A program made the translations under genes and the position numbers. Source: Azolla caroliniana (Eukaryota; Plantae; Polypodiophyta). From it: a stretch of DNA of 64,000 nucleotides. The stretch spans positions 5,208,001 through 5,272,000 of the forward strand of contig JBHGNT010000017.1 of assembly GCA_043228905.1 (NCBI GenBank), given 5' to 3'. The notes beneath the pieces were generated by a model. It did not search any database and was not told where the DNA came from. It saw nothing but the letters and a program-made list of their open reading frames with translations. This document shows positions 3,801 to 60,072 of the stretch, piece after piece (position 1 is the stretch's first letter; every line of letters starts with the position of its first letter).

Positions 3801-3929
3801 TGTCAGGAACTCTATTAAGGCAGAGAAGGAATTAGTACTAAAAGAAGGATTAGTACTATTGTTGGGGAATAGTACTAAGACAAAGAAGGATTAGTACTAT
3901 GAGAGGTGTCGAACTTTGAGAGAAGGAAT

Positions 3930-3973
<44 letters not shown>

Positions 3974-18740: not shown

Positions 18741-18835
18741 ATATTTGTTGGAAACCTGGGATACAAAAGCAGTTACTTCTCCCTATTCAACATTCGTATG
18801 CAATGGAACTACTTCAGGTCTGGACATGGAAAATG

Positions 18836-20920: not shown

Positions 20921-20971
20921 ACAAACTTTTCAATTACAAACTTCTCAATAGAAAGACAATCAGGCACCATT

Positions 20972-31700: not shown

Positions 31701-32272
31701 AAACCCCATTATACGCGGAGAGCATTAACATGTTGGAGGGGTTACCGGATGACGAGGTCGATCGATACCTAGAGGAACACCCACGAATCGTACCGCTATT
31801 TGAGGTAGACATCACGGCGGTGGTAGAACCGTATATCACGACACCGGGACAGGACGAACCGGATCAAGCAGCAATCCGGGAACTGCGCCAAGCACAAGAA
31901 TCATTAGAAAAAGAAATGACAATATCCCAGAGGGTGAAGGCATCCCAACTGGAGGAGGTGGACCTCGGCACAACAGACAAGCCCCGAGCGGTAAATGTTG
32001 CAAAGGAATTGCCGAAAGAAGAGAAGAAGGCAATGGTGGCGTTATTAACGGACTTCAAGGACATATTCACATGGTCGTATGAAGACATGCGAGGGCTGGA
32101 CCCTCAGCTGTACCAACACCAAATTCATCTGAGTACGGACGCAAAACCGATAGCTCAACGACGGTACCGAATGAACCCGAATTATGCAGCAAAGGTCAAG
32201 GAAGAGATCGACAAGCTTCTCCGGGTCGGATTTATCTGACCAGTAAAGCAGGCAACCTGGCTAAGCCCGATA

Positions 32273-37595: not shown

Positions 37596-40500
37596 CGATA
37601 GTGGTTGTCCCGAAGAAGAACGGCAAGATCCGGGTATGTGTGGACTACCGGAAACTAAATGCCGCAACAGTGACCGATGCGTTTCCATTACCGTTTACGG
37701 ACGGGGTACTAGATGCGGTGGCCGGCCATGAAGTCTACAGCTTCCTGGATGGATTCAGTGGCTACAATCAAATCCAAATGAACCCAGCCGACCAGGAGAA
37801 AACGGCGTTCGTCACGGAATGGGGAGTGTTCGTAGCTATCGTAATGATGTTCGGATTAAAGACGGCCCACACGACATTTCAACGTATAATAATGGAAATC
37901 ATCGGGGAATATATTCCCGGTTTTATGCAGGTCTTCCTCGATGATTTCGCGGTCTACAGCCGGCACGGGGAGCATCTTGATCACATGTGGCTGTGCCTAG
38001 AGAAGTGCCGCGAGTACCGGTTGAGTTTGAATCCGGCCAAGTGTGTCTTTGGAGTGGCAAGCGGTAACTTATTAGGACACGTGGTGAGTAAGGAAGGAAT
38101 CGCGGTGGATCCGGACAAAGTGAAAGCGATCCACGAGGCACCGGCTCCAAATAACGCAAAAGCCTTAAGTCGGTTCCTGGGCCAAATAAGGTGGCATAGC
38201 CGAATGATACGACACCTCGCAGATTTTGCCACACCGTTACATGCCGCCGTACATAGAGTACCCTTCCAATGGGCGGAGACCAAGGAGAAAGCCTACCAAG
38301 CGTTAAAGGTTATGCTATCGCAAGCCCCGGTAGTTCAACCACCGGATTGGAGCAAAAGCTTTCACGTATTCGTTGACGCGTCGAACGTGGCAATCGGCAG
38401 CGTCCTAATGCAACTCACAGAGCCGAAATGGTACCGGCCGATCTACTACGCAAGCCGGAAACTCTCGAAAGCAGAACGAAACTACTCTACAACAGAACGA
38501 GAGGCCTTAGGGATGGTGTATAGTGTCACCAAGTACAGACACTATTTGCTCGGAGGGAAGTTCTCCTTCCACGTGGATCATTCGGCACTACTCTACCTGG
38601 TATCGAAGGCATCCTTGACCAGAAAAATCGCACGGTGGACATTGTTGTTACAAGAATTCGAATTCGACATCTTCCACCGACCTGGGGTGCAGCATGCGGT
38701 AGCTGACTACCTAAGCAGACTTGAATCCGGGGAAGCAGGGGACGACGTACATGATGAGTTCCCCGACGCCGAGCTGTTCCGGATCACGACCGAACCGGCC
38801 ACGGATGCAATAGTAGCCGACGAAGACAAATGGCTAACCAAAATGCATCAGTTCCTGAGCACCGGAGTACCCCCGGAGAACATGGATCGCGATGAGAGGA
38901 AGAGGGTAGCCGTGAGAAACAGACACTTCTGCTTGGTTGGAGACACCCTCTATCACAAGGGGGAAGGATGGCATCTGGAGACGAATGGTGCAGAGTGACG
39001 AGAAGGATCTGATCCTGAGGGAAGCCCACTATGGAATAGCCGGAGGGCATTATGCCGGCGAAGCAACCGCTCGGAAGATATGGCAGAGCGGACTATGGTG
39101 GCCCACCACTCTAAAAGATGTCGTGAAGTATAGCAGGGAATGCGATTTATGCCAACGACTAGGCCAACCCACAGAGCAGGCCCGAATGCCACACCACCCG
39201 GTCTTGCCCTTAGAACCGTTTCAAAATTGGGGTTTGGACTTTGTCGGTCCCTTTAAGCCCCCGGCCATGAGAACCGGAAATCGGTATATCATAGTGGCGA
39301 CCGATTATTGCACCAAATGGGTGGAGGCGAAGGCGTTACGGGACAACACGGCCGCTTCCACTGTGAAGTTCTTGTATGAATGCATATGGTGCCGTTATGG
39401 CTGCCCGATCGAGCTAATAAGTGACCAAGGAGGGCACTTTCTCGGGCAGGTAGTGGAAAGCATGACGTCATTTTACACGGTAGTACACAAACGGAGCACT
39501 CCTTACTACCCGCAAGCCAACGGTCTAGCGGAGTCGACGAATAAAACTCTGCAAAACATCCTGCGAAAGATCGTCAAAGAGAACAGAACCGATTGGGATA
39601 CGAAACTGCAGAGCGCACTTTGCGCGTACCGGACAACGTATAAAACCAACATCCGGACAACCCCGTTCCGACTAGCATTCGGCTTAGAAGCGGTCATGCC
39701 GGTTGAATTCCAGATTCCCAGCTTACGGATCCAGGTAAAGGAACGCTTAAGTGAGAAAGAGTCCGAACGAATCCGACTGGCAACGCTATTAGAATTAGAG
39801 GAAAACCGGATAGCCAGTTTACTGCAGTTGGAACTAGAGCAAAGGAGAAGGAAGGTGTTCGTGGACCGACACCGACGGGGCAACGAAAAGGAGTTTGAAG
39901 TCGGGAAACCGGTATTACTATTCCAGACACGGATGGGGAACATGCCGAGAAAATTGCGATTTCGGTGGACCGGACCGTTCTGGATAACCAAGGAGTACAA
40001 TGGGTCGTATCAGCTCGGTACATTATCAGGAGAATTCATTGGTAAATGGGCAAATGGGTTCCGGCTAAAGCCTTATAAAGGACATATGCCAACCAACCCG
40101 TTCAAGCAAGACCCGAAGATCCGGCACGAGGAGGAACCGACACCGACAGAAACTGCTCCGGAAGTCCGACACGAAGAGGAATCGACACTGACAGAAACTA
40201 CCTCGGAGAACCGGCATGAGGAGATCCTGGTACCGGTGAGAACCGACCCGGACAAACCGGGTGCAATCGACAAATGACGTGACAAACCGGGTGCAACCGA
40301 CAAAATAATAATAAAATAATAATAATAATAATAAATAAAAATAAAAATAAAAAATTTAATAAGAAAATGATCAATCTATAATGATGACTAGGGAGATTGC
40401 AAGAGGTCGGAGCGCCAAGCATTAAAAAGGAAGCGCCGCCAATCAATGAAGAAGCGCCATTCAGTAAATAAGGACGTGCGGGTACTTGCTATTTAAGGTA

Positions 40501-40787
40501 GAGAACGTGGGCAAGGACCTGCTATTTACAGTGCAGACACCGACGTACGAGGAGAGATGCACGCGCGGGAATCATGAAAGGACTTGCTATTTATGGCGGG
40601 AGATATGCATGCGCGGGAATCGAAAAAGGACGGCTCGAGGAAAACGCAGCTACAAAATGCACAGGCCTGTGAAGGACTCACGTTTTACGAATTTTCATTC
40701 ACACAGGCGCAGAAGCACAGAAGAGCAATCTGACACACAGAGCATACACACCCCGATCAGCAGGCACCGGAAGAAGGATCAGAACCC

Positions 40788-43160
40788 ATGGCACTGTCGG
40801 ACGAAGCACGACAATGGATGACAGAAAACGGGATGGAAGGACTGCTGCGCATTGCCGATGCTCCACCACACGCAGAACCGGAGCAGGCGGCAGCAACAAT
40901 AGACCTATCGGAAGTCACGGAAGGAGCGGTGCAGGCGCTCACGGGAATAAAAGCCGGTGGACTCCGATCGATTGAGAACCCATCCAATCAGATCCTGTTC
41001 GAGTATTTCGGTGAATACTCCATAAGCAGCAAGGCGTACCGAATACAGGGCGGACAGAACCTGCTATTCGGAGAGGTGGCCCGGGCCATGATGGAACACG
41101 AGTTCGTGCATCCTCGTCCCCTAGCCATTCCCAAGTACTGGGCAGGGTTCGTGATTGCGGCGTATGAAGGGTTGCAAGTGGATTGGCTCCACTTCATAAC
41201 CGAAGGGCTGAAGGACACCATCAAGAACCTAGTAGACGGAAAAAAGCCATGGGCCGGAATAACGCAGTGGCTGACGGTGTTAGTCCCACCGGTACTCCCC
41301 ATCAAACAGAAGAAGAGAAGTCGGCAGGAGACCACTCCGAAGAAGACGGCAAAACGCCGACAGATCTTGGAGAAACACACCCCGGGATGGACCCAGGAGG
41401 AAGGAGAACAACAGGAGGAAGGACCATCCCAATGGCAACCGGAACAGGCGCCGGCACAAGCGAAACCGGCGGGGAAAGGAAAAGAAAAAATGGCAAAGAA
41501 GACCAACCGAGAACTGGCCGAGGAAGAGCCAGTGGTGCACAAGCTGATCAAGATAACACAGCGACGGCCGGAACCCGAACCAAAGGATTTCATACAAAAG
41601 GTCCGTCTGGGAACCGCACCGGAGGAGGAAGCTGAGACAGGAGATTCATCCGAACAACTGGTGAGACAACCACCAAGACAAGGACGGGAGAAACGGGCGA
41701 AAGGACCGGCTCTACCAGTTGACGGTACTCAGCGATGGGCGAAGGGACCACCTCCAGTAGCCGGGGCGGAAGGGAAAAAGGACGAAGTTAGGACCGCACC
41801 GAAGGGGGCAGCACCGGAACCGGTTTTGCCGGATTCCAGAGAACTGCGTGGACAGGCCGAGCAGGAAATAGAGCGGCTTCAGGAAGAACTCCGAGAACAG
41901 AAGGACCGGGATGACCAGTTACGGGCTCAGGTGAACCGACGCCTGAAGCAGAAAACGGAGGATTTCGACAGACTGTACCGAGATCACAAGCAGGCCGAGT
42001 CGGACAACAAGAAACGGGGAGCAGAATACGACCGGCAGATAGAGAAGCTGAAAGAGCAGCTCAAGGAAACCCAACTGGATTTGGCCAAGACAATGGAGGA
42101 GTTAGATGTCAAGAAAGAGGCATTGTCGGCGGAAAAGACCTTGGTGTCCGACCAAAGGAAGGAGTTGGAAGCACTTCGGCAGGAGAAGTTGGAAATAACA
42201 AAGAACCGGAATGAAGAAAAGGAACGGTCTACGTACGTGATCAACAAACTGCAAAGTACCTATGAAAGGAAGGCAGCGGAATACGAAGCCCTGGCCCAGG
42301 CAACGGCTGCGATTATAACACGGGAAAGAAAGGAAAATCAAGAAGCATATGCACAGGCTAAAGCAGGGGCGAACCGGATCCGGCTCATCATGTCATCATG
42401 GAGTGACCGAGCGCAGGCTAGCATCAATGAAAGCACTGAGAAGCTATGGAAGGAGTGGTCGCAACAAGCAGCTGAGCTGCAGACACTCCGAGCGGACGCT
42501 GAGAATCGGAGGAAGACGGGTGACAAGTTTTACAAGATGGATGAAGAAAGTATAGTCACCATTCGGGAGGAATTGCAAGAGGATTTCTTCGCTTTGGCAG
42601 AAGAACATCTAAAGGAGATCCGAGGGTTGGTGGAAAGGCTGGATGACGGGCAGCTCACAACTCAGTTGGAGTTGGAGAAGTACGAGCAGGACCGCTTACG
42701 ACAGGAAGCCGAGGAAAAAACGACGCCGATCACTATAAGGGAGGAAGAGAGACCGGCTGAAGCTGAACCAACCGATACCGAACAACGCCGACAGGGAATA
42801 CCCGAAGAAGAGCTTCCAGTCCAAGAAAATCAAGAGGAGCAGTTGCAGACCAATGCCGGGGAAGAAGAAGAGCTAGCACAAGGGAACACCAGGTCGGAGG
42901 AAGAAGTAGAACCGCACCGGCCTGTCGAGACCGGGGAAAGCGACACGGGTAACAGAATAGAGCCCAGAACGGAAGAAGAACAAGAGGAACCCGGACAAAG
43001 CGGAGAGGAAGCACCGGCACCACAGAAACAAGAAGAGCCGGAGCAGCAACCAATTCAACCGGAGGTCGGAGAAGAGGCAGGCAAGGAACGGGAACCCACG
43101 GAAGAGGCACCACTTGACACTTTCGAGCGGACCTTGCTCGACATTTTGGAGGAAGACTGA
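40788..43160 (+). CDS. Extra ORF of element E (790 aa): globular N-terminal domain, long coiled coil, acidic tail; function unknown
   Basis: Uninterrupted ATG-started ORF between the integrase stop and the 3' LTR; heptad-like E/K/Q/R-rich middle. Confidence 0.85.
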   Translation: MALSDEARQWMTENGMEGLLRIADAPPHAEPEQAAATIDLSEVTEGAVQALTGIKAGGLRSIENPSNQILFEYFGEYSISSKAYRIQGGQNLLFGEVARAMMEHEFVHPRPLAIPKYWAGFVIAAYEGLQVDWLHFITEGLKDTIKNLVDGKKPWAGITQWLTVLVPPVLPIKQKKRSRQETTPKKTAKRRQILEKHTPGWTQEEGEQQEEGPSQWQPEQAPAQAKPAGKGKEKMAKKTNRELAEEEPVVHKLIKITQRRPEPEPKDFIQKVRLGTAPEEEAETGDSSEQLVRQPPRQGREKRAKGPALPVDGTQRWAKGPPPVAGAEGKKDEVRTAPKGAAPEPVLPDSRELRGQAEQEIERLQEELREQKDRDDQLRAQVNRRLKQKTEDFDRLYRDHKQAESDNKKRGAEYDRQIEKLKEQLKETQLDLAKTMEELDVKKEALSAEKTLVSDQRKELEALRQEKLEITKNRNEEKERSTYVINKLQSTYERKAAEYEALAQATAAIITRERKENQEAYAQAKAGANRIRLIMSSWSDRAQASINESTEKLWKEWSQQAAELQTLRADAENRRKTGDKFYKMDEESIVTIREELQEDFFALAEEHLKEIRGLVERLDDGQLTTQLELEKYEQDRLRQEAEEKTTPITIREEERPAEAEPTDTEQRRQGIPEEELPVQENQEEQLQTNAGEEEELAQGNTRSEEEVEPHRPVETGESDTGNRIEPRTEEEQEEPGQSGEEAPAPQKQEEPEQQPIQPEVGEEAGKEREPTEEAPLDTFERTLLDILEED

Positions 43161-46100
43161 GGCCGTGTGTGGGTTCAAAGTGCAAAGCACTTTCCCACGG
43201 GCGTGCCATGTGTTGGCCGGTCAGAAGTGGAAGGACAAGTGGGAAGGCGGAATCGGATAGAATAATATAAAGTAAATATTAGTAGAATTATTATTCGGAG
43301 GGACGGATCCGGTACAGTTGTACCAATCCGGATCCGGACCGATTCGGATGCCGGTTGCCTAAGCGCACCATTTTGTAATCTTGTCGGATGCCTATAAAAG
43401 GATCCGATGAATTGTAATGAGTTTTTACGGAAGTAATACAAGCTTAACTATTTGTGATTATTTTAGTGTCTGTATTGTCTTACCGTCTGTGCTAATTGTA
43501 ACTATCTTACGCGTGTACTCTAACATGCAATCCTCACCACCCCCTTTGGAGAAGTGTTGGAAAGACTTCTGTGTTGGGGCTAGTCCGGCCAGCAATACAA
43601 CACTTGTTATCATTTCTGAGGGTGCCCCGATTTTGTTCGTGGTTCTTCCGAACGGTCAAAAATTGAACAGAGTGACGGCCGTCCTGACTTTTTACCCTCG
43701 CGTAGGCTGAACCATTGTCCAACACTTTTGTTTCCATTCTAGCCGCCGTGATGTATGGTTCCCCAAGGATGACCGGGTGAGAGGACGTCTCTTGCACGAA
43801 AAAGTGTTGGTTTATGTCAACGTCCCCGACGCTCACCCTGACGTTCGGGCAAGCCCCGTGTAGCTCTTCCGTGGCTCTTGTAGCCGCGCGTATCTTCCAC
43901 CCATGTTTGGTATTGATCGGCCAATTCCCCTTTTTGTAGAAGTCCATGGACATTAGGTTAATTTCCAACCTGTGGTCGATTAACGCCACCACCGGTTCCT
44001 TGACATTCCCGATACGAACCGGGGTTTCTGTAGTAGCTCTTGCCCAGTCCGGTTTGGCGTAGTTGCTCTCCGCGAGCTCGTCTTCCATGGCTATCTCATC
44101 GAGGAGTGTCGCCCTTACCTCAATCGGCTTCTCAGGCTCCGGTTCCGTTGCGAGAAGCTTTCTCTTCATGATTTCCACGATGTTGTCGTGGAACTCCCTT
44201 CTTGCTATGCCGAGCACTTCCCTAAGCGTGAGTTCTATGCGACTGTCGAGAACTTGCTCCTCTAGAACATTTTATAGGTTCATTGTTTTCTCTATCTCCG
44301 AGCTTAAGCAGAAGCTCGGAATCCTGCCCTTCTCCTTCTCCTGGAATCCGGTCCGAGCGGCATCATGCTTTTTGGTTGCGCTTCGTGTATCATGCCTCCC
44401 CGAGGGGCCGCTCCCCCGGTTTTTCCCGCTCGCCTTTCGTCGATCAGGGCTTCGCAGTTTCTGCACCCGGCCTCAACAAAGCCAGTGCTTTCTTCAACGG
44501 GGTCGCTCCACCCGGTAACTTCGCGAACACGTTCTTCTGCGTGCTCCGCTTCCTCCTTCTACACCCTTCCTCTGGACAAAGTCTCAAGAACGATCGGCCA
44601 GAACCCAGATTTGGAATCAGGTTTGTTCGTCTTCTCCCCTATGCATATGCAAGCCGAAGGCGAATAGTGGACGGCTTCGACGTGCCGGGCCACGGCTTCT
44701 TCCATTTGCCTCTTCATGCCCCCTCGTCTGAAATTCGTGTCGAGCAATCTTCGCTTGTCGCTCGCATGTACCCTGCCGTTCGAAAGGTAAACTACATTAC
44801 TCCTGAGCGCTTCTCTGAAGTCAGCGTATTCTCTCTAGGCATGTCCGGTGGCGTCGCACCATACGCACCTCTGATTGGCCGGTGGTCGCCGGTCACGCGG
44901 CTGACCTTCGTCGCTTCGTTGGGCCTGAGGGGTCACGCACCATCCTTGCCAGTTCTTCTAGTCTGGCGCCACCTGCAGGTCCCGCGACTATGTTCGCCGG
45001 GGGTGGGCCTAGATCGAGCCACCTCCTCGTTTCTTCCATTCGGGTCGGCGTTGGTTCGGCCTTGATTTCGACAGCCGGTCCGACCGACGAGGACTCCTTT
45101 TCTTTCCAGTCTCGCCATTTGTCAATCCTACTGCATACTTCCTTGATGATCACCCAATCAGTCGTGAGGCCTCGGTTGGTTTCCAAAAGAAGACCCACAT
45201 TTTCCCGGACACGTGAGTCGAATGAAGTGACAACAAATAGAACCTTGCTCGTTTCGAGCACAGTTCGGTCCAACCTAGAGAGTCGTGCAAACCTTGACTC
45301 GAACTCCTGGAGGAGCGCAGAAGCATTCTGACCCTTGTTGGGGCTGTTGACCCAGTCCATAAAATCCTTTCTCGATAGCCAGAGTGAATCATCATAGTTG
45401 TACCTCTCGAGAACTTCCTCTGCGAACTCCGCCCAATCGTGACAACCCGCTTGTATCTTGACCATCTCTGTATGGATGTGTGGTGTTATGACCCGGGGAA
45501 ACCCCGCTAGCCATCTATCTTCGGGTATGTTCGTCATCTACATTTCAGATTTGTAGGTCTCTACGTAACACGTGGCGTCCTTTCCGCCGAACCGGCCTAT
45601 CTTGCCAACTGTTGCCTCTATGGCCCGGAGAGTTCAGACCGAAGAGGCCTGGATCGGAAAGGAACGTCGGCGATCACGACAAGTGAAGAAGAAATTATGC
45701 TCATCACGGAGGAGAATGACTTAAATCTTGTCAATGACGAGACAATGTGAGTTGTCGATTCCGTAGCGTCAGTCCACCTGACACCGAATCGGAAATGCTT
45801 CTCATCCTACACAACCGGTGATCATGGTTGTGTCCGGATGGGGAATGATGATACATGCCGAATTGTCAGCATAGGAGATGTGTTGATGACGACATCAACC
45901 GGATCCAAGTTGTTGCTGAAGGATGTCTGACACGTTCCGGAGCTAGATGATGAAGGCTACAAGGGTAGCATCCGGAACACAGTCATGAAATTCAGCAAGG
46001 GAAGCTTGATTGTGGCCCGAGCCCGGAAGGTCAAGATATTGTACCTGATGCATGCCCGGATATGCCAAGAAGAAGTGAACGTGGCATCCGGCACTGCTGG

Positions 46101-46359
46101 TGAGCTATGGCACAAAAGATTGTGTCACATGAGTGAGAAGGGGATGAAGAGGCTTGCCGAAGACGACCTCATTCCGGTGAAGGACGTGCAACTTGAGAAG
46201 TGCACCGATTGCTTGGCCAGCAAGCAAAACCGAACCTCCTTCCGGTCAAGACCACCAATGAGACAGAATGCACCACTGGAGCTGGTGCATACCGATGTGT
46301 GTCAAGTGGACAGTAAGTCACATGGCAGATCGCAGTACTTCGTGACGTTCATAGACAAC

Positions 46360-46904
46360 CACATCCGGAAGTTGTGGCTCTCATCGTTGAAGACAAAGAA
46401 TCAGGTTCTATCCGTCTTCAAGGAGCTCCACGCGAGCATGGAAAGAGAAACCGGCTGAAAGCTGAAGGTGGTTCGAGCAGATAACGGAGGAGAATACCGA
46501 GGTCACATCCGGAAGTTGTGGCTCTCACCGTTGAAGACAAAGAATCAGGTTCTATCCGTCTTCAAGGAGCTCCACGCGAGCGTGGAAAGAGAAACCGGCC
46601 GAAAGCTGAAGGCGGTTCGAGCAGATAACGGAGGAGAATACGAGGGCACATCCGGAAGTTGTGGCTCTCACCGTTGAAGACAAAGAATTAGGTTCTATCC
46701 GTCTTCAAGGAGCTCCACGCGAGCGTGGAAAGAGAAACCGGCCGAAAGCTGAAGGCGGTTCGAGCAGATAACGGAGGAGAATACGAGGGCACATCCGGAA
46801 GTTGTGGCTCTCACCGTTGAAGACAAAGAATTAGGTTCTATCCGTCTTCAAGAAGCTCCACGCAAGCGTGGAAAGAGAAACCGGTCAGAAGCTGAAGGCG
46901 GTTC
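46360..46904 (+). repeat. Tandem amplification (4 x 143-144 bp) of an integrase-core segment
   Basis: Units start CACATCCGGAAG at 46360, 46504, 46647 and 46790; the fourth resumes after the solo LTR at 47583. Confidence 0.93.
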
Positions 46905-47582
46905 TGTTGGGAGACAGGTCCCTTCGGATGGTGCAGACCCGATGAGAACCGGATGAGGAGTACCCGGCTACGGAGAGCCGGATGGTGCAGACCCGGCTAT
47001 GGAGAAACGGATGGTGCAGACCCGGCTACGGAGAGCCGGATGGTGCAGACCTACTGAGAACCGGATGAGGAGTACTCAGCTAGATCCGGATGATGCAAGC
47101 CCGGTGAGGAGTGCTCTCCGGATGAAGAGACATATTTGTAAATATGTTTCTGAGAGTCCATCGTGGCTATATTTGTAAATAGCTGAAAAGTCATATTAGT
47201 ATAAATATGACTTAGGACAAACCTTTAAAGGTTGTTGTTGTTGTTGTTGTTATTCTTGTGTGTGCAAGAATAGAGTGAGTGCATAACAGTGTACACAGAG
47301 AGAGAGGGCAAGAGGTCGTTGCCTTTGTTGTAACCGCCGCCTGTGGCGAGGATCGTGAGCACGAGGTCGTTGCCTCCGTGAACTCACTGTTGTACATTCT
47401 AGCATAGTGATAGTTTGCAGCCTGTGGGCTGCCATGGTTTTTCCCTCCTTGGGTTTTCCACGTAAACATCTCGTGTACTCTTCTCCTCTTTGTCTCGTGC
47501 TTTCATTGCCCGTTTTCTGTGTATGAATCTAAGCTTGATTGTGGTCGAGCGTTGCATATAGGGGAGCGTTTAGTTCCTGTCA
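46905..47582 (+). mobile_element. Tork-like copia solo LTR (678 bp), TSD GGTTC
   Basis: TGTTGGGA...CCTGTCA; GGTTC at 46900-46904 and 47583-47587. Confidence 0.92.
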
Positions 47583-48418: not shown

Positions 48419-49565
48419 CTGACGACGGCGACCTATGTGATAAACAGATCACCCTCAGTACCCTTGGGAGGAGACTCACCTCAGAAAGTATGGACTTGTA
48501 AAGATGTATCTTACCGGCATCTGACAGTGTTCGGGTGTCTCACATACGTGCATGTGGCGAAGGAAAAGAGAGCAAAGCTGGATCCGAAGTATCGACCATG
48601 CATATTCCTTGGATACGGCGATGATGAGTTCGGTTACCGGGTGTGGGATCTGGTCGATGAGAAGGTGTTCCGGAGTCGGGACATAGTCTTCATGGAAGAC
48701 AAGAACATTGCCAATTGCAAGTCGGAGAAGAAGATGACCAACTCCGGTTCATCCAATGAAAAAGGTCTTGAGGACACAAGGACCTACCTGGTTGAAAACC
48801 GGATGTTAGCCGGTAACTGGATGACACTTGACGAACCGGTCGGATTCGGACAAGAAACCGAACACACCAAAGAAGAAGAAGAAGAAGACGACAACGGAAC
48901 CAGACAAGATCCTAAATCGGATGAGGATGAGGAATAGACGGAGGAACCAGTAGTCAGAAACCAAGGACGAAGATATCCTCTCCAAGAGAGAAGAGCCCCC
49001 TGGAGATTTCTGGATGCAGGCCATGTGTTGCTAACCCACAGCCGCAAGTGGTTGACTGCCATGCAGGATGAGATGGATTCCCTACATGAGAACCACACAT
49101 ATGAACTGACGGAGTTGCCGAAAGGAAAGAGGGCACTCCGGAACAAGTGGTTGTACAAGCTGAAACCAGGAGATGCCAAAAACCCACCAAGATACAAAGC
49201 CCAAATTGTGGTGAAGGGATTCTAGCAGAAGAAAGGAGGGGACTTGTCAGGAATAGTACTAAAGCAGAGATGGAATTAGTACTAAGAAGAGTAGTACTAT
49301 TAGTACTAAGAGGACGGGACTGCGTAAGATTCCCGAGAGAGAGGAAGTGAGAAGAGGAGAGAGAAAGAAATAGGGTGATGACAACAGCTCTTATATTATA
49401 TGAAAGATAAGTACAAATCGACTAAGAGGTTTAAGACTGGTGTTGAACCAATTTGGTTCAAAACAATGTCTTGTGCCTCCTTTTATAGTGTTTTTAGGAA
49501 TAATCCTGAAACTTCTAGAATGTTCCAGAGAGATCTGGAATATACATCAATTTTCTATGATAAAG

Positions 49566-49670
49566 TATAAATAAAAATAATATCCTACAAAATACAATTC
49601 ATAGTCTAATGGTAAGAGCTCGACCCATGTAGCATAAGGTCATGGGTTCGAGTCTTGCCATATCATGACA
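49566..49670 (+). promoter_or_regulatory. tRNA-like A box/B box module in the 3' LTR of B
   Basis: TAGTCTAATGGTAAGAGC at 49602 and GGTTCGAGTC at 49645. Confidence 0.62.
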
Positions 49671-51104
49671 TTATCTCCCCCTTAAAGACGCTAATTGCGG
49701 ACCAGGTTTGTCCGGATACTTTCGGTGGAAATCAGCAAGAAGATCTTGTGCATTGGCAACATGCTCGACGGGTTCCCAAGTACGTTCGCTCGGTCGATTT
49801 GCGGCAACTTCATACTCCGGGCCGGCGTCCAACTCCAGCGGGGGCGGCGGTGGTGTCACACGATCGGGAATGGTGTTTGCTTTATAAGGCTCAAGAAGAG
49901 AACAATGGAAAACCGGATGTATCTGAAGCTGTGGAGGGAGAGAGATCAAGGCGGAAGGTGACATCATTAAGCTTCCCCGTAATACGGAAAGGACCGAGTC
50001 GTCGATAATCCAACTTGTCGCACGGTCGAGTAGTCTTGATGTGACGACGTAAGAGCCATACTCGATCTCCGATGGCAAAAGAGGAGGGAATCCGATGACG
50101 ATCCGCATAAGTCTTCTGTGTGTGTTGAGCATGACGAAGGTGAGTAGAGAGATCCATCTGGATCTTGCGTAGCCTCTCCAAATGATCCTCGGCACGAGGG
50201 TTGGTAGGTAGCTCCGGAGTGTCGATCACCGACCAGCGAGGATGGAAACCGGTATAAGCGAAAAATGGGGAGACCCAAGTCGAGGAGTGAATAGCATTAT
50301 TATACGCAAACTCCGCAAAGTGGAGAATCTCGGCCCAATCGTCCTGTTGATAACTCAGGAAACACCGGAGATATTGCTCCAGCGTTTGGTTTGTTCGTTC
50401 CGCCTGTCCGTCGGTCTGAGGATGGTAGCCGGAGGAGAGGTTGCAGGAGACCTTGAGCATCTTGAAGAGATGCTGCCAAAATTTGGAGACAAATTGCGGG
50501 CCTTGGTCACTGATAATACTGTCTGGGAGGCCATGATGCCGAAATACCTCACGCATAACAAGAGCGGCGGTTTCCTCACTAGTGATGGCTTTAGTACATG
50601 GCACAAAATGTGCCATCTCTGTATATCGATCGACGACGGTTAGGATAGCATCGAACCCCTTCGAGACCGACAGATCTGTGATAAAATCAAGACAAATAGA
50701 CTGCCATGGCTTACTTGGAATCGGTAAAGGTTCCAACAAGCCATATGGATGGTGTCGTGGCATCTTTGCTCGGCAGCAAGCATCACAGGTCCGAACGTAG
50801 TCGTCGACAAAACGGCGCATGTGGGGCCACCAAAAAGATCGTTGCACTAGCTCCAACGTCTTAGTACTACCGAAAGGTCCCGCCGTATGGGTGTCATGAC
50901 AATGTTGGACGATTTGAAGGCGACAGGAGCAATCGGGGACATATACGCGCTTTTTAAAGAATAACAAACCATCATGATATTCGAATTGTCGGTAGTCAAT
51001 ACCTGGTTGTTGAGACTAAGAACAGGATGCCCGAGAAGTATCAATGTGCGCTAGGATGTCTTGAGCAAAACTATCCGTCTTCAAGGTTGCATGTATGTCA
51101 TCGG

Positions 51105-54100
51105 TGTTGGGATTACGGTCCCTTCGGATGGGATGGTCGGAAGTCGGAGATGAATGCCGACGAGCCCGGTTTCGGTTTCGGATCCGGATGACGAAGACCC
51201 CGGTTTCGGTACCGGATGACGAATGTACCCGGAGAGCGATCCGGATGCAGGGACATATCCGTGAATATGTTCGCTATGGGCCCCTGAGGCTACAGTTGTA
51301 AATAGCCCAAAGTCATATAAGTATAAATATGACTTAGGGCAAACTGTTTTGTTGTTGCTAGTCATTTTTCTGTTTTTCCACTCAAGAGGAGTGAAGAGAG
51401 AGCAGCCGTGAGAGAGAGAGAGAGAGAGAGAGAGCGATAGAGCGCGAGCGAGGAAGAGGTAGACGCCTCTGTGTATTTCCGCCGCCTGTGGCGAGGATAG
51501 CGAGCTCAAGGTCGTCGCCTTGCAGCTCGCCATTGTATACTTCTCTGTATAGTGTTGGTTTGGAGTCTTGTACTCCCGTGGTTTTTCCCGTCTAGGGTTT
51601 TCCACGTTAATCCCTGTGTACTCGCGTTTTTTTTTCTTTGTTTCTCCGTGTGGTTCCTATTTTCTGCTCCATTGATCCGCGATTAATCGGTTGTGGCCGA
51701 GTGAAGAAGGCGAATCGAAGCGTTGATTCCCAACAAACTGGTATCAGAGCAAACTGCTGCAGAAAATGGAAGGCGGCGGCAGCGGGCAGCCGATGATGAT
51801 GGTGCTGAATGCGCAGAATTACGCCGACTGGAAGATCAAGATGGAGGATCTTCTGATTGTTCGGGACCTGTACGAACCGATTGACAGGTCGGAAATACCG
51901 AAAGGGGTACTTGAGTCGGAGTGGAAGCTCCTGAACCGGAAAGCCGTAGCGACGATCCGACAATATGTCGATGTAAGCGTCCTACAACATGTGGCGAACG
52001 ACACCAACGCATATGAGATGTGGAAGAAGCTGTCGGGCCTCTATGAGAGGAAGAATGCGTTGAACCGGACCTCCCTGATGAGGAAGATAGTGAATCTCAA
52101 GTACCGGGACGGCGAGAGTATGGTGGAACACGTAAGCACGTTCATGGGATTCGTGAATCAGCTTGCGGCGATCAAGTTCCCGTTGGAGGATGCAATGCAA
52201 GCCATCATCCTGATGTGTACATTGCCGGAAAGCTGGGAGAACTTGGTGGTGACTCTCAGCACCTCCTGCACAGAAGATAACTTGTCCTTGCAAACGGTAA
52301 AGACAAGTATTTTGAATGAAGAAGCGCGTCGGAGAGATAAGGAACCGGCCTCCGACCCGAAGATGTTGTTTACCGAATCGGATCGGGGAAGACAATGGAA
52401 CCGGAGTCCGCAAAGACGGGAGAAGTCGGGGACCCGGTCGCAGTCAAGAGGAAGGCCTACATGCTTCCACTGTGGGAAGCCGGGGCACTTCCGAAAGAAT
52501 TGTCGGCATTACCGAAAAGACAACGGAGCCGACGACACTGATTCGAAGAAGTCACCGGAGAGAAACGGTGCATACCGGGGAGCCACGGACCGGAGAGGTT
52601 CGGATCGGCGAGGGCAGGACCGGAAAGGAACAACGGCACTCGCGGCAAGTGAGGAAGAAATCATGCTCATCACCGAAGAAGGTGAGCTAAACGTTGCAGG
52701 CGATGAGACGACCTGGGTGGTCGATTCCGGAGCATCGTTCCACCTGACCCCGGAGAGAAGATACTTCTCATCCTACACAGCCGGCGAGCATGGCTGTGTT
52801 CGGATGGGAAATGAAGGCACGTGCCGGATTGCCGGCATCGGAGACGTGTGGTTGACAACCCCGACCGGATGCAAAATGCTGCTGAAGGATGTCCGACACG
52901 TTCCGGAGGTTCGATTGAACCTGATTTCGGCCGGGAGGCTAGACGATGAAGGCTACACAGGTAGCATCCGGAACGGCGTAATGAAGTTCAGCAAGGGGAG
53001 CCTGATAGTGGCTCGGGCCCGGAAAGTCAACACACTGTACCTGATGAATGCCCGGTTATGTCCGGAAGAGCTGAATGTGGCAGCCGACACTGCCGGTGAG
53101 CTGTGGCACAAGAGACTGTGCCACATGAGTGAGAAGGGGATGAAGAGGCTTGCAGAAGACAACCTTATCCCAGTGAAGCATGTGCACCTGGAGAAGTGCA
53201 CCGATTGCCTGGCCGGTAAGCAGAACCGAACCTCCTTCCACTCAAGGCCACCGACGAGACGTAGCGCACCATTGGAGTTGGTGCACACTGATGTGTGTCA
53301 GGTAGAAACGAAGTCACATGGCGGAGCCCAGTACTTCGTAACATTCATTGATGATCATAGCCGGAAGCTGTGGACGGCACCGTTGAAGACAAAGGACCAA
53401 GTGTTGTGCGTCTTCAAAGAACTCCACGCGAGAGTGGAAAGGGAATCCGGCAAGAAGCTGAAAGCGATACGAGCGGATAACGGAGGGGAATACCGGGGGC
53501 AGTTCCAGGAGTACTGTCGCTCGAAGGGAATCCGACTCGAGTTTACTGTGCCGAAGACGCCGGAACTGAACGGGCTGGCCGAGAGGATGAACCGGACCAT
53601 AATGGAGAGGGTCCGGAGTATGCTGGCGCATGCGAAATTACCCAAGGGGTTTTGGGCTGAGGCAATGTCGACGGCGACATACGTGATAAACAGATCACCC
53701 TCAGCACCTTTGGACGGAGACACGCCGCAGAAAGTGTGGACCGGTAAGGAAGTGTCCTACCGGCATCTGAAGGTGTTCGGGTGTCTCGCATACGTGCATG
53801 TGGCAAAGGACCGGAGAGGAAAGCTAGATCCAAAGACCCGGCCATGCATATTCCTCGGTTACGGCGATGACGAGTTCGGCTACCGAGTATGGGACCCGGT
53901 CGACAAGAAGATATTCAGGAGTCGAGACATCATCTTCATGGAGGACAAGACACTCGCCGACTGGGAGTCGGAGAAGAAGGTGAAGAGCTCCAAGTCGACC
54001 GGTGAGGATCAACTCTACGTGGAGCAGTCCCGACCGGCAAGGGACCGGTTAGCACTCGAGGATCCGGCCGAAGACGGTGAAGAAACAGAACCGGCCGAAG

Positions 54101-56480
54101 AAGATGAAAACGATACCGGAACCGGCCCCGATCCCGAAATGGATTCGGATGAAGAAGAATCGGAAGAACCGGTTACCGAAGCTCCGGAACGAAGATATCC
54201 TCTAAGAGAGAGAAAGGCCCCCCGGAGATTTCCGGAACCAGAGCACGTGCTGCTAACCGACGAGGGGGAGCCGGAGAGCTTTGAAGAAGCAAAGCATGAC
54301 ACCCAGAGCCGCAGGTGGTTGAGTGCCATGCAGGACGAGATGGATTCCCTGCATGAGAACCACACATATGAACTTGTGGAGTTGCCGAAAGGAAAGCGGG
54401 CACTTCGAAACAAGTGGGTGTTCAAGCTGAAACCGGGAGATGCCGGAAACCCCCCGAGATACAAAGCCAGGATCGTGGTGAAGGGGTTTCAGCAAAAGAA
54501 GGGCGTCGACTTCGACGAGATATTTGCCCCGGTAGTGAAGATGACCTCCATCCGGACGGTGCTGAGCATAGCGGCAAGCATGGACCTCGAGGTAGAACAG
54601 ATGGACGTGAAGACGGCATTCCTTCACGGTGACCTCGAAGAAGAGATCTACATGCAGCAACCGGAAGGATTCGAGAAGGAAGGGAAGGAGCACCTGGTAT
54701 GCCGGTTGAAGAAGAGCCTTTACGGACTGAAGCAGGCTCCCCGGCAATGGTACCGGAAGTTCGACTCCTTCATGACCGACGAAGGGTACCTCAAAACGCA
54801 GTCCGACCACTGCGTGTTTGTGAAGAAGTTCGAAGGAGGAGACTTTCTAATACTCCTCCTGTACGTGGACGACATGTTGATCGTCGGACGGGACCAGGTC
54901 AAGATACGGATGCTGAAGAAGGCTCTTCACCGAACCTTCTCAATGAAGGACCTGGGTCCGGCGAGGCAAATACTAGGGATGCACATCATCCGGGACCGGA
55001 AGAAGAAGCAGTTGTGGCTGTCACAGGAGAAGTACGTGACGAAGGTGCTTCACCGGTTCAACATGTCGGAAGCAAGACCGGTCGGATCGACCCTCCCGGC
55101 AAACTGCAAGCTGTCCAGAAAGCAAAGTCCCAAGACAAAGGCTGAAAAGGAGGATATGATGAAAGTGCCGTATGCCTTAGCCGTCGGGAGCTTGATGTAC
55201 GCCATGGTGTGTACGAGACCGGACATCGGATATGCAGTCGGAGTGGTGAGCCGGTACATGAGCAATCCCGGCAAAGAGCATTGGAACGCGGCCAAGTGGA
55301 TACTCCGATACCTGAAGGGCACAGCGAATGTGTGCCTCCGATTCGGCTCCGGTAAACCCGAACTCGACGGTTTCACCGATTCGGATATGTCGGCTGATGC
55401 AGATACCAGCCGGTCCACATCAGGGTATGTGATGACGTATGCAGGGGGAGCTGTTTCGTGGCAGTCGAGGCTGCAGAAGACGGTTGCGTTGTCAACCACG
55501 GAGGCGGAGTACATAGCAGCTGTTGAAGCCGGCAAGGAAATAATATGGATGAAGGACTTCATTAGAGAGCTCGGTATCCAACAGGAGGAGTACCGACTCT
55601 ACTGGGACAGTCAGAGTGCAATCCACCTTGCGAAGAACGCGGCCTATCACTCCCGGACGAAGCACATCCAGCGAAGATATCACTGGATCCGGGAAAGGAT
55701 AGAAGACAAGGAGTTCGTGCTGACAAAGATCCACACGGACGAGAACGGGTCGGATATGCTGACCAAGGTGCTCACACCCGACAAGCTGGAAGCATGCCGG
55801 AAGAGGATCGGATTGGAAAGACATCCCATGCCGAAGTGAAGGCGGAGTTTGTTGGGATTACGGTCCCTTCGGATGGGATGGTCGGAAGTCGGAGATGAAT
55901 GCCGACGAGCCCGGTTTCGGTTTCGGATCCGGATGACGAAGACCCCGGTTTCGGTACCGGATGACGAATGTACCCGGAGAGCGATCCGGATGCAGGGACA
56001 TATCCGTGAATATGTTCGCTATGGGCCCCTGAGGCTACAGTTGTAAATAGCCCAAAGTCATATAAGTATAAATATGACTTAGGGCAAACTGTTTTGTTGT
56101 TGCTAGTCATTTTTCTGTTTTTCCACTCAAGAGGAGTGAAGAGAGAGCAGCCGTGAGAGAGAGAGAGAGAGAGAGAGAGCGATAGAGCGCGAGCGAGGAA
56201 GAGGTAGACGCCTCTGTGTATTTCCGCCGCCTGTGGCGAGGATAGCGAGCTCAAGGTCGTCGCCTTGCAGCTCGCCATTGTATACTTCTCTGTATAGTGT
56301 TGGTTTGGAGTCTTGTACTCCCGTGGTTTTTCCCGTCTAGGGTTTTCCACGTTAATCCCTGTGTACTCGCGTTTTTTTTTCTTTGTTTCTCCGTGTGGTT
56401 CCTATTTTCTGCTCCATTGATCCGCGATTAATCGGTTGTGGCCGAGTGAAGAAGGCGAATCGAAGCGTTGATTCCCAACA
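51105..56480 (+). mobile_element. Element C: intact, very young Tork/Tnt1-like copia; TSD ATCGG
   Basis: 631-bp LTRs 51105-51735 and 55850-56480 with no differences seen; PBS TGGTATCAGAGC 51739-51750; ATCGG on both sides. Confidence 0.98.
51766..55839 (+). CDS. Copia gag-pol polyprotein (Gag, CCHC, PR, IN, RT, RNase H), 1357 aa
   Basis: CFHCGKPGHFRKNC, WVVDSGAS, HTDVC/ADNGGE, LYVDDML, FTDSD...SDMLTK. Confidence 0.98.
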   Translation: MEGGGSGQPMMMVLNAQNYADWKIKMEDLLIVRDLYEPIDRSEIPKGVLESEWKLLNRKAVATIRQYVDVSVLQHVANDTNAYEMWKKLSGLYERKNALNRTSLMRKIVNLKYRDGESMVEHVSTFMGFVNQLAAIKFPLEDAMQAIILMCTLPESWENLVVTLSTSCTEDNLSLQTVKTSILNEEARRRDKEPASDPKMLFTESDRGRQWNRSPQRREKSGTRSQSRGRPTCFHCGKPGHFRKNCRHYRKDNGADDTDSKKSPERNGAYRGATDRRGSDRRGQDRKGTTALAASEEEIMLITEEGELNVAGDETTWVVDSGASFHLTPERRYFSSYTAGEHGCVRMGNEGTCRIAGIGDVWLTTPTGCKMLLKDVRHVPEVRLNLISAGRLDDEGYTGSIRNGVMKFSKGSLIVARARKVNTLYLMNARLCPEELNVAADTAGELWHKRLCHMSEKGMKRLAEDNLIPVKHVHLEKCTDCLAGKQNRTSFHSRPPTRRSAPLELVHTDVCQVETKSHGGAQYFVTFIDDHSRKLWTAPLKTKDQVLCVFKELHARVERESGKKLKAIRADNGGEYRGQFQEYCRSKGIRLEFTVPKTPELNGLAERMNRTIMERVRSMLAHAKLPKGFWAEAMSTATYVINRSPSAPLDGDTPQKVWTGKEVSYRHLKVFGCLAYVHVAKDRRGKLDPKTRPCIFLGYGDDEFGYRVWDPVDKKIFRSRDIIFMEDKTLADWESEKKVKSSKSTGEDQLYVEQSRPARDRLALEDPAEDGEETEPAEEDENDTGTGPDPEMDSDEEESEEPVTEAPERRYPLRERKAPRRFPEPEHVLLTDEGEPESFEEAKHDTQSRRWLSAMQDEMDSLHENHTYELVELPKGKRALRNKWVFKLKPGDAGNPPRYKARIVVKGFQQKKGVDFDEIFAPVVKMTSIRTVLSIAASMDLEVEQMDVKTAFLHGDLEEEIYMQQPEGFEKEGKEHLVCRLKKSLYGLKQAPRQWYRKFDSFMTDEGYLKTQSDHCVFVKKFEGGDFLILLLYVDDMLIVGRDQVKIRMLKKALHRTFSMKDLGPARQILGMHIIRDRKKKQLWLSQEKYVTKVLHRFNMSEARPVGSTLPANCKLSRKQSPKTKAEKEDMMKVPYALAVGSLMYAMVCTRPDIGYAVGVVSRYMSNPGKEHWNAAKWILRYLKGTANVCLRFGSGKPELDGFTDSDMSADADTSRSTSGYVMTYAGGAVSWQSRLQKTVALSTTEAEYIAAVEAGKEIIWMKDFIRELGIQQEEYRLYWDSQSAIHLAKNAAYHSRTKHIQRRYHWIRERIEDKEFVLTKIHTDENGSDMLTKVLTPDKLEACRKRIGLERHPMPK

Positions 56481-58463
56481 ATCGGTAATCCGTGAATCCA
56501 TCGAGGTGTGAAAAATGTGCGTCGTGTGCAATCGTGCTGGTCCCAAGATTACTTGCTTTTGATTATCAAATGTTGCGTCACCAGGACGAGGTGCAAGATA
56601 TGAGCGCCGTGATAGTGCATCTGCTTTTCCTTGCTGCTTCCCCGGTCGATATGTGATTTTGAAGTCGAAACGCGTGAGGAATTGCGCCCACCGAGCTTGC
56701 CGTCGATTTAGTACGCGAGCATTCTGAAAATAAGCAAGATTTTTATGATCGCTAAAGACAATGACCTGATGTGGAGAGCCCTCTAAGAAATGCCGCCATT
56801 GTACAAATGAATCCACGATGGCTAATAACTCCTTGTCATGTATTTCGTAGTTGATTTCTGCGACATTGAATTTGCGCGAATGGAAAACCACCGGATGCAA
56901 CTCTTCTTTATCACCTTGTTGAGAAAGGATGCTACCGAGGGCGAAATCTGATGCGTCGGCCTCCATGATGAATGGTTTGCTGGTATCCACATGAGCTAGA
57001 ATCGGTGCTAATGTAAAGGCTTTCTTAAGATGCCGAAAAGCCATATCTGCTTCTATGGACCAAAGAAATGCTTGGCCCTTCTTCGTAAGTTGTGTGAGAG
57101 GTAAAATAATCTTCGCAATTGATTGCGATATGCCCTAGTCCACCGCAATAAAGACATAATCGATTTGTTTTTCTTCCGATAACGGGCCGCGTCGACGCAT
57201 GGTATCGATCTCCATCGGTGTCCAAGTATTTGCTTGAGGAATGTCTCGTGCAACTGGTCTAGCCGCGACTGCGGCGTAAGTGGGCTCCGGCCTAGCGCAT
57301 GGTATCTGTAATTGACGTTCCGAACGCCGTTCGAAGAGGCGGTTGTCACATCGGACCGCTCGACTGATTGCCTCCGTAAGAGACTTTGGTTCTTTGGGGA
57401 AGGTTAGAAGTAGATCTTTGACATCATTTCGCAGGCCATAGCGAAACTGCTCCATTAGTGCTTGATCATCCCAGGGTATGTCGAAAGCGAGTAGGCGGAA
57501 ATCCGCCGCATAGGCAGAGGCTGGACGATCGCCTTGACGCAATCGCCGGATCTTGTTGATCGCCGTCCTGATGCTGTCGGTATCTCCAAAGCAGGTTTTG
57601 AACTCACTAATAAAATCTTCAAAGTTATTAAGCAAGGGCGATTGTTTTTCTAGAAGCGGAGCGAACCATGCTAAGGCTGAGCCGCTAAGCAACGTGCCTA
57701 TTAAGCCGACTCGGGATGCATCAGTGGGGTATCGGGAAGGATGCATTTGGAGGACTAATCGTACCTGATTAAGGAATCCCCTGAATTGCGATCGCGTTCC
57801 ATCAAATTTCACAGGAAGTTCAATCTTCGGCTCTTTATGAAATCCTTGGGGACTTGATCCTTGTTGTTGTAATGCCGCTTCAAGTTGTTGCACCCGTAAC
57901 GCTAACTCCCCATGTTGTTGCTGCGTTTGTTGCTTTTCTAGAGCGATTTGTTGCAGATCCCCTATCAGCCGTTGGTTTTCTTGTTCCAGGGCAACAAACT
58001 TTTCTTTTAGACACTGTAACTCGGAGAAAACGGATTGATATTCTTGGGCGCTAACAATAGCCATAGTAGGGGGGAAAGGATGGGAGGATGAGGGAGAACA
58101 ACAAGTAGGCTGGAGGAAAGAGGAAGAAAAATTGGTTCAAATTGTCAGGAATAGTACTAAAGCAGAGATGGAATTAGTACTAAGAAGAGTAGTACTATTA
58201 GTACTAAGAGGACGGGACTGCGTAAGATTCCCGAGAGAGAGGAAGTGAGAAGAGGAGAGAGAAAGAAATAGGGTGATGACAACAGCTCTTATATTATATG
58301 AAAGATAAGTACAAATCGACTAAGAGGCTTAAGACTGGTGTTGAACCAATTTGGTTCAAAACAATGCCTTGTGCCTCCTTTTATAGTGTTTTTAGGAATA
58401 ATCCTGAAACTTCTAGAATGTTCTAGAGAGATCTGGAATATACATCAATTTTCTATGATAAAA

Positions 58464-58568
58464 CATAAATAAAAATAATATCCTACAAAATACAATTCAT
58501 AGTCTAATGGTAAGAGCTCGACCCATGTAGCATAAGGTCATGGGTTCGAGTCTTGCCATATCATGACA
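58464..58568 (+). promoter_or_regulatory. tRNA-like A box/B box module in the 5' LTR of B
   Basis: TAGTCTAATGG at 58500, GGTTCGAGTC at 58543, with upstream CAA and an AT-rich TATA-like stretch. Confidence 0.62.
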
Positions 58569-60072
58569 GGACTTCGATGAGATTTTTGCCCCGGTAGTAA
58601 AGATGACATCCATCCGGATGGTATTGGACATAGCGGCAAGCATGGACCTCGAGGTAGAGCAACTGGACGTGAAGACGTCATTTCTCCATGGTAACCTCAA
58701 AGAGGAGATCTACATGCATCAACCAAAAGAATTTGAGAAGAAAGGGAAGGAACTCCTGCAATGCCGGCTGAAGAAGAGCCTATACAAACTAAAGCAAGCT
58801 CCCCGGCAATGGTACCGGAAGTTCGACTCCTTCATGACCAACCAAGGGTACCACAAGATGCAGGCCGATCACAGCGTGTTTGTGAAGAAATTTGACAGAG
58901 GAGATTTCCTGATACTCCTCCTATATGTGGATGATATGCTTATCTTCGGACGGGACCAAGGCAAGATTCGGATGTTGAAGAAGGCCCTGAACCGGACCTT
59001 CTCAATGAAAGACTTGGGTCCGGCAAGACAAATATTGGGAATGCACATCATTCGGGACCGGTCAAAGAAATTGTTGTGGTTGTCACAAGAAAAGTATGTG
59101 ACAAAGGTACTCCAAAGGTTCAACATGTCGGAGGCGAAACTAGTCGGATCGACACTTCCAGCAAATTGCAAGCTATCCGAGAAACAAAGCTTGAGGACAA
59201 AGGCGGAGAAGATGGATATGATGAAGATACCATATGCCTCTGCTGTCAGAAGATTGATGTATGTGATAGTATGTACCCGGCCGGATATCGGATATGCAGT
59301 CGAAGTGGTAAGCCAGTTCATGAGCAATCCCGGAAGAGAGCACTGGAACATGGTCAAGTGGATACTCCAGTATCTGAAATGCACCTCGAGTGTGTGCCTC
59401 CAGTTCAGCTCCGGTAATCCCCAACTTGACGGATTCACAGATTCAGATATGTCGGCTCATGTGGATACCAGCCGATCTACGACCGGATATGTCATGACTT
59501 ATGCAAGGAGAGTTGTTTCGTGGCAGTCGAGGCTAGGCATCTAACAGGAGGAATATCGGCTCTACTGCAACAGTCAAAGTGCCATCCACCTTGCAAAGAA
59601 CACGGCCTACCATTCCCGGACGAAACATATCCGACGGAGGTACCTCTGGATCCGAGAGAGAGTAGAAGATCAAGAGTTCGTGCTGACGAAGATCCACACG
59701 GAGGAGAGTTCGTGCTGACGAAGATCCACATATGATGACCAAAGAGTTGACAACCGACAAGCTGGACGCGTGTCGAAAGCGGATCGGGCAGACAAGATAT
59801 CCCATGTTGGAGTGAAGGGGGAGATTGTTGGGAAATCGGTCCCTCTGGATGGGATTCGGTGATGAATGAAGAGGAGCCTGTAAAAACCGGGAGAGATCGG
59901 AAACCGGAGGAGATCTAGGGAGAACCGGAAGAGAGGAGATATTTGTAAATATGTTTTGAGTAAGCCTATTGAGGCTATATTTGTAAATAGCCCTAAGTTC
60001 ATATAAGTATAAATATGACTTAGGGCAATCACTTAGTAAGTGTGCATAGGGTGATTGTCATATTGTTGTATG

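Follow-up and report, generated by a model that had tools for sequence, protein, structure and literature searches.

The window, i.e., the entire 64,000-nucleotide stretch of Azolla caroliniana DNA that was analyzed, holds two gypsy-type LTR retroelements, B/C and A, whose LTRs carry a tRNA-like unit (Table 1). The initial annotation had described this unit as a module shared by three Tcn1-like LTRs; the motifs that it quoted are indeed in place in all three, but B and C, which differ at 5 of 426 positions (98.8% identical), are the two LTRs of one insertion, and thus the window contains two independent elements rather than three. Element B/C lacks the protease-RT region, and its chromodomain carries an internal deletion; with its junction near 57135, it is a deletion derivative, possibly mobilized in trans. 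Both elements were inserted inside copia RT sequence (n = 2 insertions), and the copia neighbor in the window is of the land-plant type. Since B/C reads on the minus strand, the unit is antisense to it and lies at the start of U3, of which it occupies the first 76 nt, adjoining the PPT in the 3' LTR. Two further observations were made elsewhere in the window. Another gypsy element at 28763-43604 (LTRs 28763-29156 and 43211-43604) has no PPT, and just before its 3' LTR there is a tRNA 3'-arm-like stretch ending in CCA (approximately 43160-43208). Tandem repeats of about 144, 286, 156 and 202 nt were seen at 18179-21713 and 46354-46926, along with a 143-nt triplication inside a copia integrase.

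Table 1. Features of the tRNA-like unit and of the two elements that carry it, in window coordinates.
Feature	Position	Strand	Remarks
tRNA-like unit	58493-58568	+	tRNA positions 1-73, then LTR end; antisense to element, U3 start of 5' LTR
A box (T8-G19)	58500-58510	+	T8, T16, G18, G19 identical in 8/8 modules
Variable-loop motif AGGTC (44-48)	58535-58539	+	outside the scoring profile
B box (G53-C61)	58544-58552	+	G53, T54, T55, C56, A58 in 8/8 modules; C61 in 7/8
AT-rich stretch upstream of unit	58453-58492	+	predicted TFIIIB site; AT 0.85 vs 0.64 for whole LTR
Family-specific hairpin of ~20 bp	58507-58559	+	arms 58507-58527 and 58539-58559; kept in L011, weaker in A
B/C, whole element	49245-58568	-	TSD GGACT at 49240-49244 and 58569-58573
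B/C 5' LTR (copy C)	58143-58568	-	426 bp, TG...CA
B/C 3' LTR (copy B)	49245-49670	-	second copy of unit: T8 at 49602, B box 49646-49654
B/C gag	57135-58136	-
B/C RNase H	56352-57134	-
B/C integrase	49891-51015	-
Copia element nested in B/C	51105-56481
B/C polypurine tract (PPT)	49674-49683	-	3 nt ahead of 3' LTR
B/C Pol II TATA box	58379-58385	-	115 nt from T8
B/C heat-shock-element-like TTCnnGAA array	58406-58423	.	mid-U3; presumed motif
B/C self-primer, predicted RNA 5' end	58341-58352	-	12 perfect pairs with PBS
B/C primer-binding site (PBS)	58129-58140	-	complementary to element's own R region; no TGG
A, 5' LTR	3801-4263	-	78% identical; unit with T8 at 4200, B box 4244-4252
A, gag	2530-3726	-	open
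A, pol	2-2557	-	open as far as window edge

The domains follow the gypsy order PR-RT-RH-INT-chromodomain, and PF00385 was found in the closest relatives. A full Pol is encoded by the related locus L011, and element A has open gag and pol. The L011 chromodomain retains Y, W and Y at what we take to be the aromatic-cage positions; in the B copy of the window the chromodomain is deleted. Membership in Tcn1 is likely; the likeness to SM-Tcn1 was judged by eye, and the quick integrase tree was built without named Tcn1 references. The array at 58406-58423 we take to resemble a heat-shock element, and such TTCnnGAA arrays occurred in the U3 of 6 of the 14 LTRs scanned, including those of the window element, L011, L012, L018 and L019, but not in those of L014 and L015. 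In all six elements examined, no tRNA-complementary PBS was found; instead, the 11-12 bases that follow the 5' LTR pair perfectly with a self-primer, and primer and PBS covary. In 6/6 LTRs examined, 40-43 nt separate the TATA box from the self-primer's end. Such a layout was predicted for Tcn1 in passages of PMC6317226, and it is visible by eye in the SM-Tcn1 sequence given in the supplement of PMC2864245; the text portions of the latter report no sign of self-priming, although the printed sequence has an R-region stretch that, by eye, is complementary to the PBS. A separate hairpin was noticed at the U3/R border (58341-58360 in the window; also in A, L011, L012, L014, L015, L017, L018 and L022). 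The arm on its upstream side complements the self-primer and covaries with it, and within the RNA this hairpin would hide the copy of the primer in the 3' LTR.

The tRNA likeness of the unit was scored with a profile consisting of the A box, GG and the B box, built from 97 aligned class I tRNA genes that are phage-borne, not plant; the source was a set of 319 distinct genes called by ARAGORN in viral-contig loci. The three LTR copies scored 28.6, 28.6 and 26.0 bits and were the top three sites on both strands of the window, the next one reaching 13.0 bits. The best maximum of 60 dinucleotide shuffles was 22.2 bits, below all three copies, and in local shuffles the score was reached in 0 of 1000 for C and 0 of 1000 for A. 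By way of calibration, held-out tRNAs (n = 170) had a median of 34.8 bits, and the lower quartile of the training set was 25.4 bits. A covariance model from the same 97 tRNAs was discarded as a poor discriminator: modules, i.e., copies of the unit, made up 9 of the 18 hits that it gave at E<=10, but its best hit fell in the coding sequence of L012. The unit is not a functional tRNA, as the initial annotation had also held in noting that a full cloverleaf was missing: ARAGORN called no tRNA in the window or in 58 loci, no Rfam tRNA match was obtained for the unit at E<=10, and the anticodon arm is decayed, with the stem paired in 15 of 30 cells, T33 present in 3/8 and a purine at position 37 in 1/8 modules.

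Eight modules were compared, namely those of C, A, L011, L012, L014, L015, L016 and L018, six families being used for the identity figures. T8 and G53 are 44-46 nt apart in all eight, which is the class I tRNA spacing; in C (58500 and 58544) and in A the distance is 44 nt, exactly as had been claimed for the two diverged elements. In addition to the box positions listed in Table 1, R57 was found in every module, A14 in seven and G10 in four, while L014 carries C61T and G52T. Between the boxes, A44, G45, G46 and T47 are present in 8/8 modules and are always followed by a pyrimidine, giving AGGTY. Letters foreign to tRNAs are also shared (T37 and A41, each in 7/8). Across the six families, identity was 0.93 at the ten invariant box positions and 0.93 at positions 44-48, but as the box positions were picked by the profile, the box value is partly by construction, and 44-48 alone is independent. 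Elsewhere, the values were lower: 0.32 for the anticodon arm, 0.34 for the acceptor region, and 0.29-0.39 for the sequence upstream. With respect to secondary structure, D-stem pairs are kept in 18 of 24 cells with differing pair types (permutation p 0.11-0.14), and T-stem pairing equals the permutation mean (p 0.6-0.7). Two further candidate features were rejected: the Levitt pair 15:48, which matches in 2/8 modules, and an in-register acceptor stem, paired in 12/42 cells; a +1 register gave 22-23/42 (p 0.008-0.06) but was picked post hoc. A role of the unit as an att site was likewise rejected, since its distance to the LTR end, counted from the B box, varies between 11 and 40 nt while the T8-G53 distance is fixed.

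The expectation that the boxes would be better conserved than the rest of U3 was thus borne out between distant families, but not between close copies, A and C being identical at 44/53 positions of the unit and at 55/62 of mid-U3. Contigs of two DNA runs (X1, 1469; X13, 1073) had no substitution of at least 3% at 58507-58518 or 58533-58568, the B-box CpG included; they varied at 58487-58498 and at 58525-58532, with substitutions of 3% or more lying upstream, at variable A-box positions and in the loop, and many had one extra base at tRNA position 20a. It is to be noted that these contigs were selected at 80% likeness, which biases the variation seen toward conserved places, so that they lend supporting color only. 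Some of them match the unit through the B box (58547-58553) and then diverge, and could derive from further LTR subfamilies or from a free-standing SINE-like source. Upstream of the unit, AT content was 0.75-0.95 in 8/8 modules, against 0.60-0.73 for the whole LTR. Thus, of the upstream signals proposed, the TATA-like stretch near -30 exists as an AT-rich region without a defined TATA; the CAA near -7 does stand at -7 (58486) in both C and A, but L011 has lost it, and 58487-58490 belong to the positions at which the family varies most. Both the upstream AT-rich region and the CAA of plant Pol III genes are weaker outside flowering plants.

Relatives were collected as 98 loci, 79 from a metagenome scan (the best 80 of 597 matches) and 19 from two viral scans. 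Scored in antisense over the first 160 nt of U3, L011 reached 26.8 bits, L016 24.1, L015 22.2, L012 20.5 and L014 13.1, values equaled in 0/300 shuffles each, and L018 scored 15.4 bits (0/1000 shuffles). In the five module loci scored on both strands, the sense score was below 0, as against 13-29 bits in antisense. L011, L016, L015 and L012 were the top four sites when all 98 loci (752,145 bases) were scanned; the background over whole loci extended up to 19.8 bits, and thus L014 and L018 rest on position and AGGTC. Among the Pol ends that are followed by 150 nt or more (n = 87, which excludes L016 with its 148 nt), six reached 13 bits in antisense, comprising five modules and a mid-region hit in L070. 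Two sense hits were also seen: L082, a distant, probably fungal chromovirus, has an A-box/AGGTC/B-box match at 8281-8335, downstream of pol, which at 16.0 bits is within the background range, and in the LTR of L080 a T run comes after a perfect B box (5355-5520; 18.5 bits with wide spacing).

In a quick integrase tree, the window element and L011 to L016 formed one group (support 89), and the unit was present in every member of it that had U3 sequence; L013, L020, the second L012 copy and the 61-64 kb element of the window had too little U3 to score. The sister group has the unit in L018 and doubtfully in L022 (7/300 and 51/1000 shuffles), and lacks it in L017, L026 and L029. It is also absent from L019 and L024, from most other chromoviruses scanned, and from the IMG/VR relatives (35-42% Pol identity), and none was visible by eye at the U3 start of SM-Tcn1. 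Tcn1 elements can therefore do without it. Box-pattern scans gave 21 hits in viral contigs, none of them a retroelement, and none in prokaryote genomes. The integrases of the distant carriers are 59-73% identical to the L011 protein, and by blastn their LTRs matched the window LTRs only in short stretches of R, L011 excepted.

The pattern could be regarded as a neutral relic, i.e., tRNA or SINE heads captured recently and perhaps repeatedly, their conservation reflecting nothing but the boxes shared by the sources. This would explain why the unit is kept no better than mid-U3 between close copies, why its presence is patchy, with L018 standing in the sister group beside L017 and L022, and why the families have different but compensated D-stems, as expected if they were captured independently. 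Nonetheless, the unit occupies the same place with the same polarity in six families, the anticodon arm and the acceptor have fallen to background while the boxes have not, the shared letters T37 and A41 point to one ancestor, and the integrases differ by 27-41%, all of which leaves a relic improbable. The common place and polarity, together with the decayed anticodon arm and acceptor, indicate selective retention of the boxes. We consider it very probable that the unit is both tRNA-derived and under selection, in support of the original proposal of a tRNA-derived A/B-box unit fixed, in antisense, in the U3 of a protein-coding Tcn1-like gypsy lineage.

If the unit is selected, the selected product may be an RNA. 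In that event a Pol III gene would yield an RNA, tRNA-like or folded as a hairpin, that reads outward from the 5' LTR and, from the 3' LTR, antisense over the PPT and integrase, and that tunes either the element or silencing by the host. The hairpin first noted is real and strong in the family of the window: that of C has a folding energy of -31.4 kcal/mol (z -5.85 on the plus strand, -4.69 on the minus). Moreover, of the four CpG transitions possible in the paired CG/CG stem, C58519T alone exceeds 3% in the X1 and X13 contigs, and it leaves the B box intact and retains a G:U pair on the plus strand; A58525G in the same contigs is also G:U-compatible on that strand. The D- and T-stems mostly pair, one six-family set having 12 G:U cells as opposed to 2 A:C cells, and a TTTT lies 21-79 nt beyond G53 in L014, L015, L016 and L018. 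Precedent exists in simian foamy virus (SFV), as passages of PMC3993851 describe miRNA cassettes in foamy-virus LTRs. However, the long hairpin is not general, being absent from the four distant families L012, L014, L015 and L016 (z -0.5 to -1.2, or +0.1), and L018 has a different one. The inner-stem differences in A are G:U-compatible on the plus strand only, as had been pointed out, but the outer stem of A is broken and the two strands fold equally well (z -3.0 and -3.2). The T-stem pairs no better than by permutation, and the counts are small, with ancestry shared. Finally, the first TTTT lies 1297 nt beyond the B box in the 3' LTR of B/C, and none occurs within 540 nt in L011, over more than 660 nt from A, or in the 700 nt of L012 that were examined. 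Three presumed RNA runs (X20 to X22) yielded 2, 6 and 0 short contig pieces, which speak neither for nor against a transcript. A discrete RNA as a general feature, as initially envisaged, is thus not supported, and with terminator and hairpin unconserved, a defined RNA product is less likely than the binding of a factor; we regard the RNA explanation as unlikely.

The unit might alternatively act within the genomic RNA, where the 3' U3, being complementary to the D loop, variable loop and T loop of tRNAs, would anneal host tRNAs for packaging or strand transfer. The antisense polarity, the exact tRNA spacing and AGGTY are what pairing to class I tRNAs would need. Ty3 has a bipartite primer site, and a tRNA3Lys gene-like sequence in the U3-R of HIV-1, reportedly tied to the primer tRNA and strand transfer (a finding ascribed to Piekna-Przybylska, 2010), may be offered as precedent; HIV-1 resembles the present case in having tRNA-gene-like sequence in U3 but differs in that the elements here have no tRNA primer. 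Indeed, because the element primes itself and primer and PBS covary, no tRNA would be anchored at the 5' end; in the family of the window the anti-T-arm is locked in a sense-RNA hairpin of -25 kcal/mol; and G10T, A14T, C61T and T37 (7/8) would be mismatches rather than wobbles. This renders annealing to tRNAs quite unlikely. The unconserved terminator and hairpin and the absence of a tRNA primer thus weaken the RNA-product and the primer-bridging explanations alike. Priming by RNA of the unit through its T loop was rejected as well, since the PBS differs in L012, L017 and L022 and follows the R-region primer.

A TFIIIC site might also steer integration, either because it tethers the end of the cDNA to Pol III clusters or because elements that target Pol III use it as a landing pad, and the location of the unit at the cDNA terminus would suit such a role. 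Against this, none of the three copies in the window has an insertion upstream of its boxes, both elements sit in copia RT, and ARAGORN called no tRNA gene in the window (n = 2 insertions), all of which makes a steering role very improbable.

The explanation that we favor starts from what is directly observed, namely the position, orientation and spacing of the unit, retention of the boxes, loss of the cloverleaf and the self-priming layout. From its sequence, the unit would be a Pol III promoter of type 2 to which TFIIIC binds and which keeps chromatin open, or blocks silencing, at the outer edge of the Pol II promoter, a reading to which we give slightly less than an even chance. The positions retained in the modules are the ones that TFIIIC reads. 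Passages of PMC12409998 state that TFIIIC has a high affinity for the B box and a low one for the A box, that tRNA genes and ETC sites have an established TFIIIC-dependent barrier and insulator activity in both yeast and human, and that TFIIIC sites also act as nucleosome placeholders. Mechanistically, one tRNA or SINE head would have been captured, with the polarity of a reverse-transcribed tRNA, its 3' end nearest the PPT. Purifying selection would then have kept the boxes; the B box would bind TFIIIC; and TFIIIB could occupy the AT-rich stretch that separates the unit from the HSE-like array and TATA, creating a divergent Pol III/Pol II pair roughly 115 nt apart. The benefit would be a barrier or nucleosome-free zone rather than an RNA, which is the least certain step. 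Of the components, binding by TFIIIC is predicted and rather likely, and a barrier or open chromatin may be the selected function, which we hold tentatively, with the odds somewhat against it. By the same passages, TFIIIC tolerates 32-93 bp between the boxes (PMC12409998), and thus the exact spacing, AGGTY and the D-stem (18/24) exceed its known needs and hint at a constraint at the RNA level. In its fullest form, the proposal is of a portable tDNA-type insulator in an autonomous lineage, in which an outward-facing captured promoter at each LTR edge would recruit TFIIIC and TFIIIB, shield a stress-inducible Pol II promoter from flanking heterochromatin, and seed the host with mobile TFIIIC sites; this is possible but somewhat doubtful as a whole.

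Short non-autonomous elements are known to be driven by Pol III promoters in their LTRs, but a tRNA promoter that faces backwards cannot transcribe its element and must therefore do something else. In the literature searched, seen partly as excerpts and covering few subscription papers and not Repbase, no LTR of Tcn1 or of another autonomous plant element is described as carrying a tRNA promoter in antisense, and the unit, which is real and selectively conserved, is apparently new in this form. Its closest counterpart is Helenus/TRIMp3, of which one family occurs in Selaginella; as described in portions of PMC10886601, it likewise has tRNA-derived sequence in both LTRs, with conservation centered on the A and B boxes, a non-functional tRNA and a 5-bp TSD. 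However, Helenus elements are non-coding, tRNA-primed TRIMs of 311-1263 bp, as opposed to a self-primed Gag-Pol lineage with a Pol II TATA, and their unit is in sense (GGTTCGA 120 times and TCGAACC 7 times in the supplement of PMC10886601), where Pol III is proposed to transcribe the element, while the present one points outward. The same portions of PMC10886601, which analyzes TRIMs only, remark on the likeness of 'not a few' LTRs in Repbase to part of a tRNA and expect autonomous partners to use ordinary Pol II LTRs. Cassandra TRIMs, as presented there (PMC10886601), also captured an internal Pol III promoter in their LTRs, but it is 5S-derived, of type 1 and in sense, and transcribes a non-autonomous element. 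Plant Tcn1 chromoviruses such as SM-Tcn1, in the sections of PMC2864245 and PMC6317226, have the same Gag and Pol with chromodomain, LTRs of about 440 bp, a 5-bp TSD, no tRNA PBS and the primer/PBS layout, but no tRNA-like unit is described there. The foamy-virus cassettes, by the excerpts of PMC3993851, are A/B-box Pol III units within the LTR of an autonomous element as well, yet they belong to animal retroviruses, are demonstrably transcribed, have terminators and give hairpin products, and are not described there as tRNA remnants. The tDNA and ETC barriers, finally, share TFIIIC-bound boxes that halt the spread of heterochromatin, but in the passages of PMC12409998 they are fixed host loci of yeast and mammals and not mobile, and passages of a review on plant barriers contain no example of a plant tDNA barrier. 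The unit offers a compact case for asking if TFIIIC barriers are functional in plants and if a transposon can turn one against silencing, and an abundant family carrying it would add many TFIIIC sites to the host genome.
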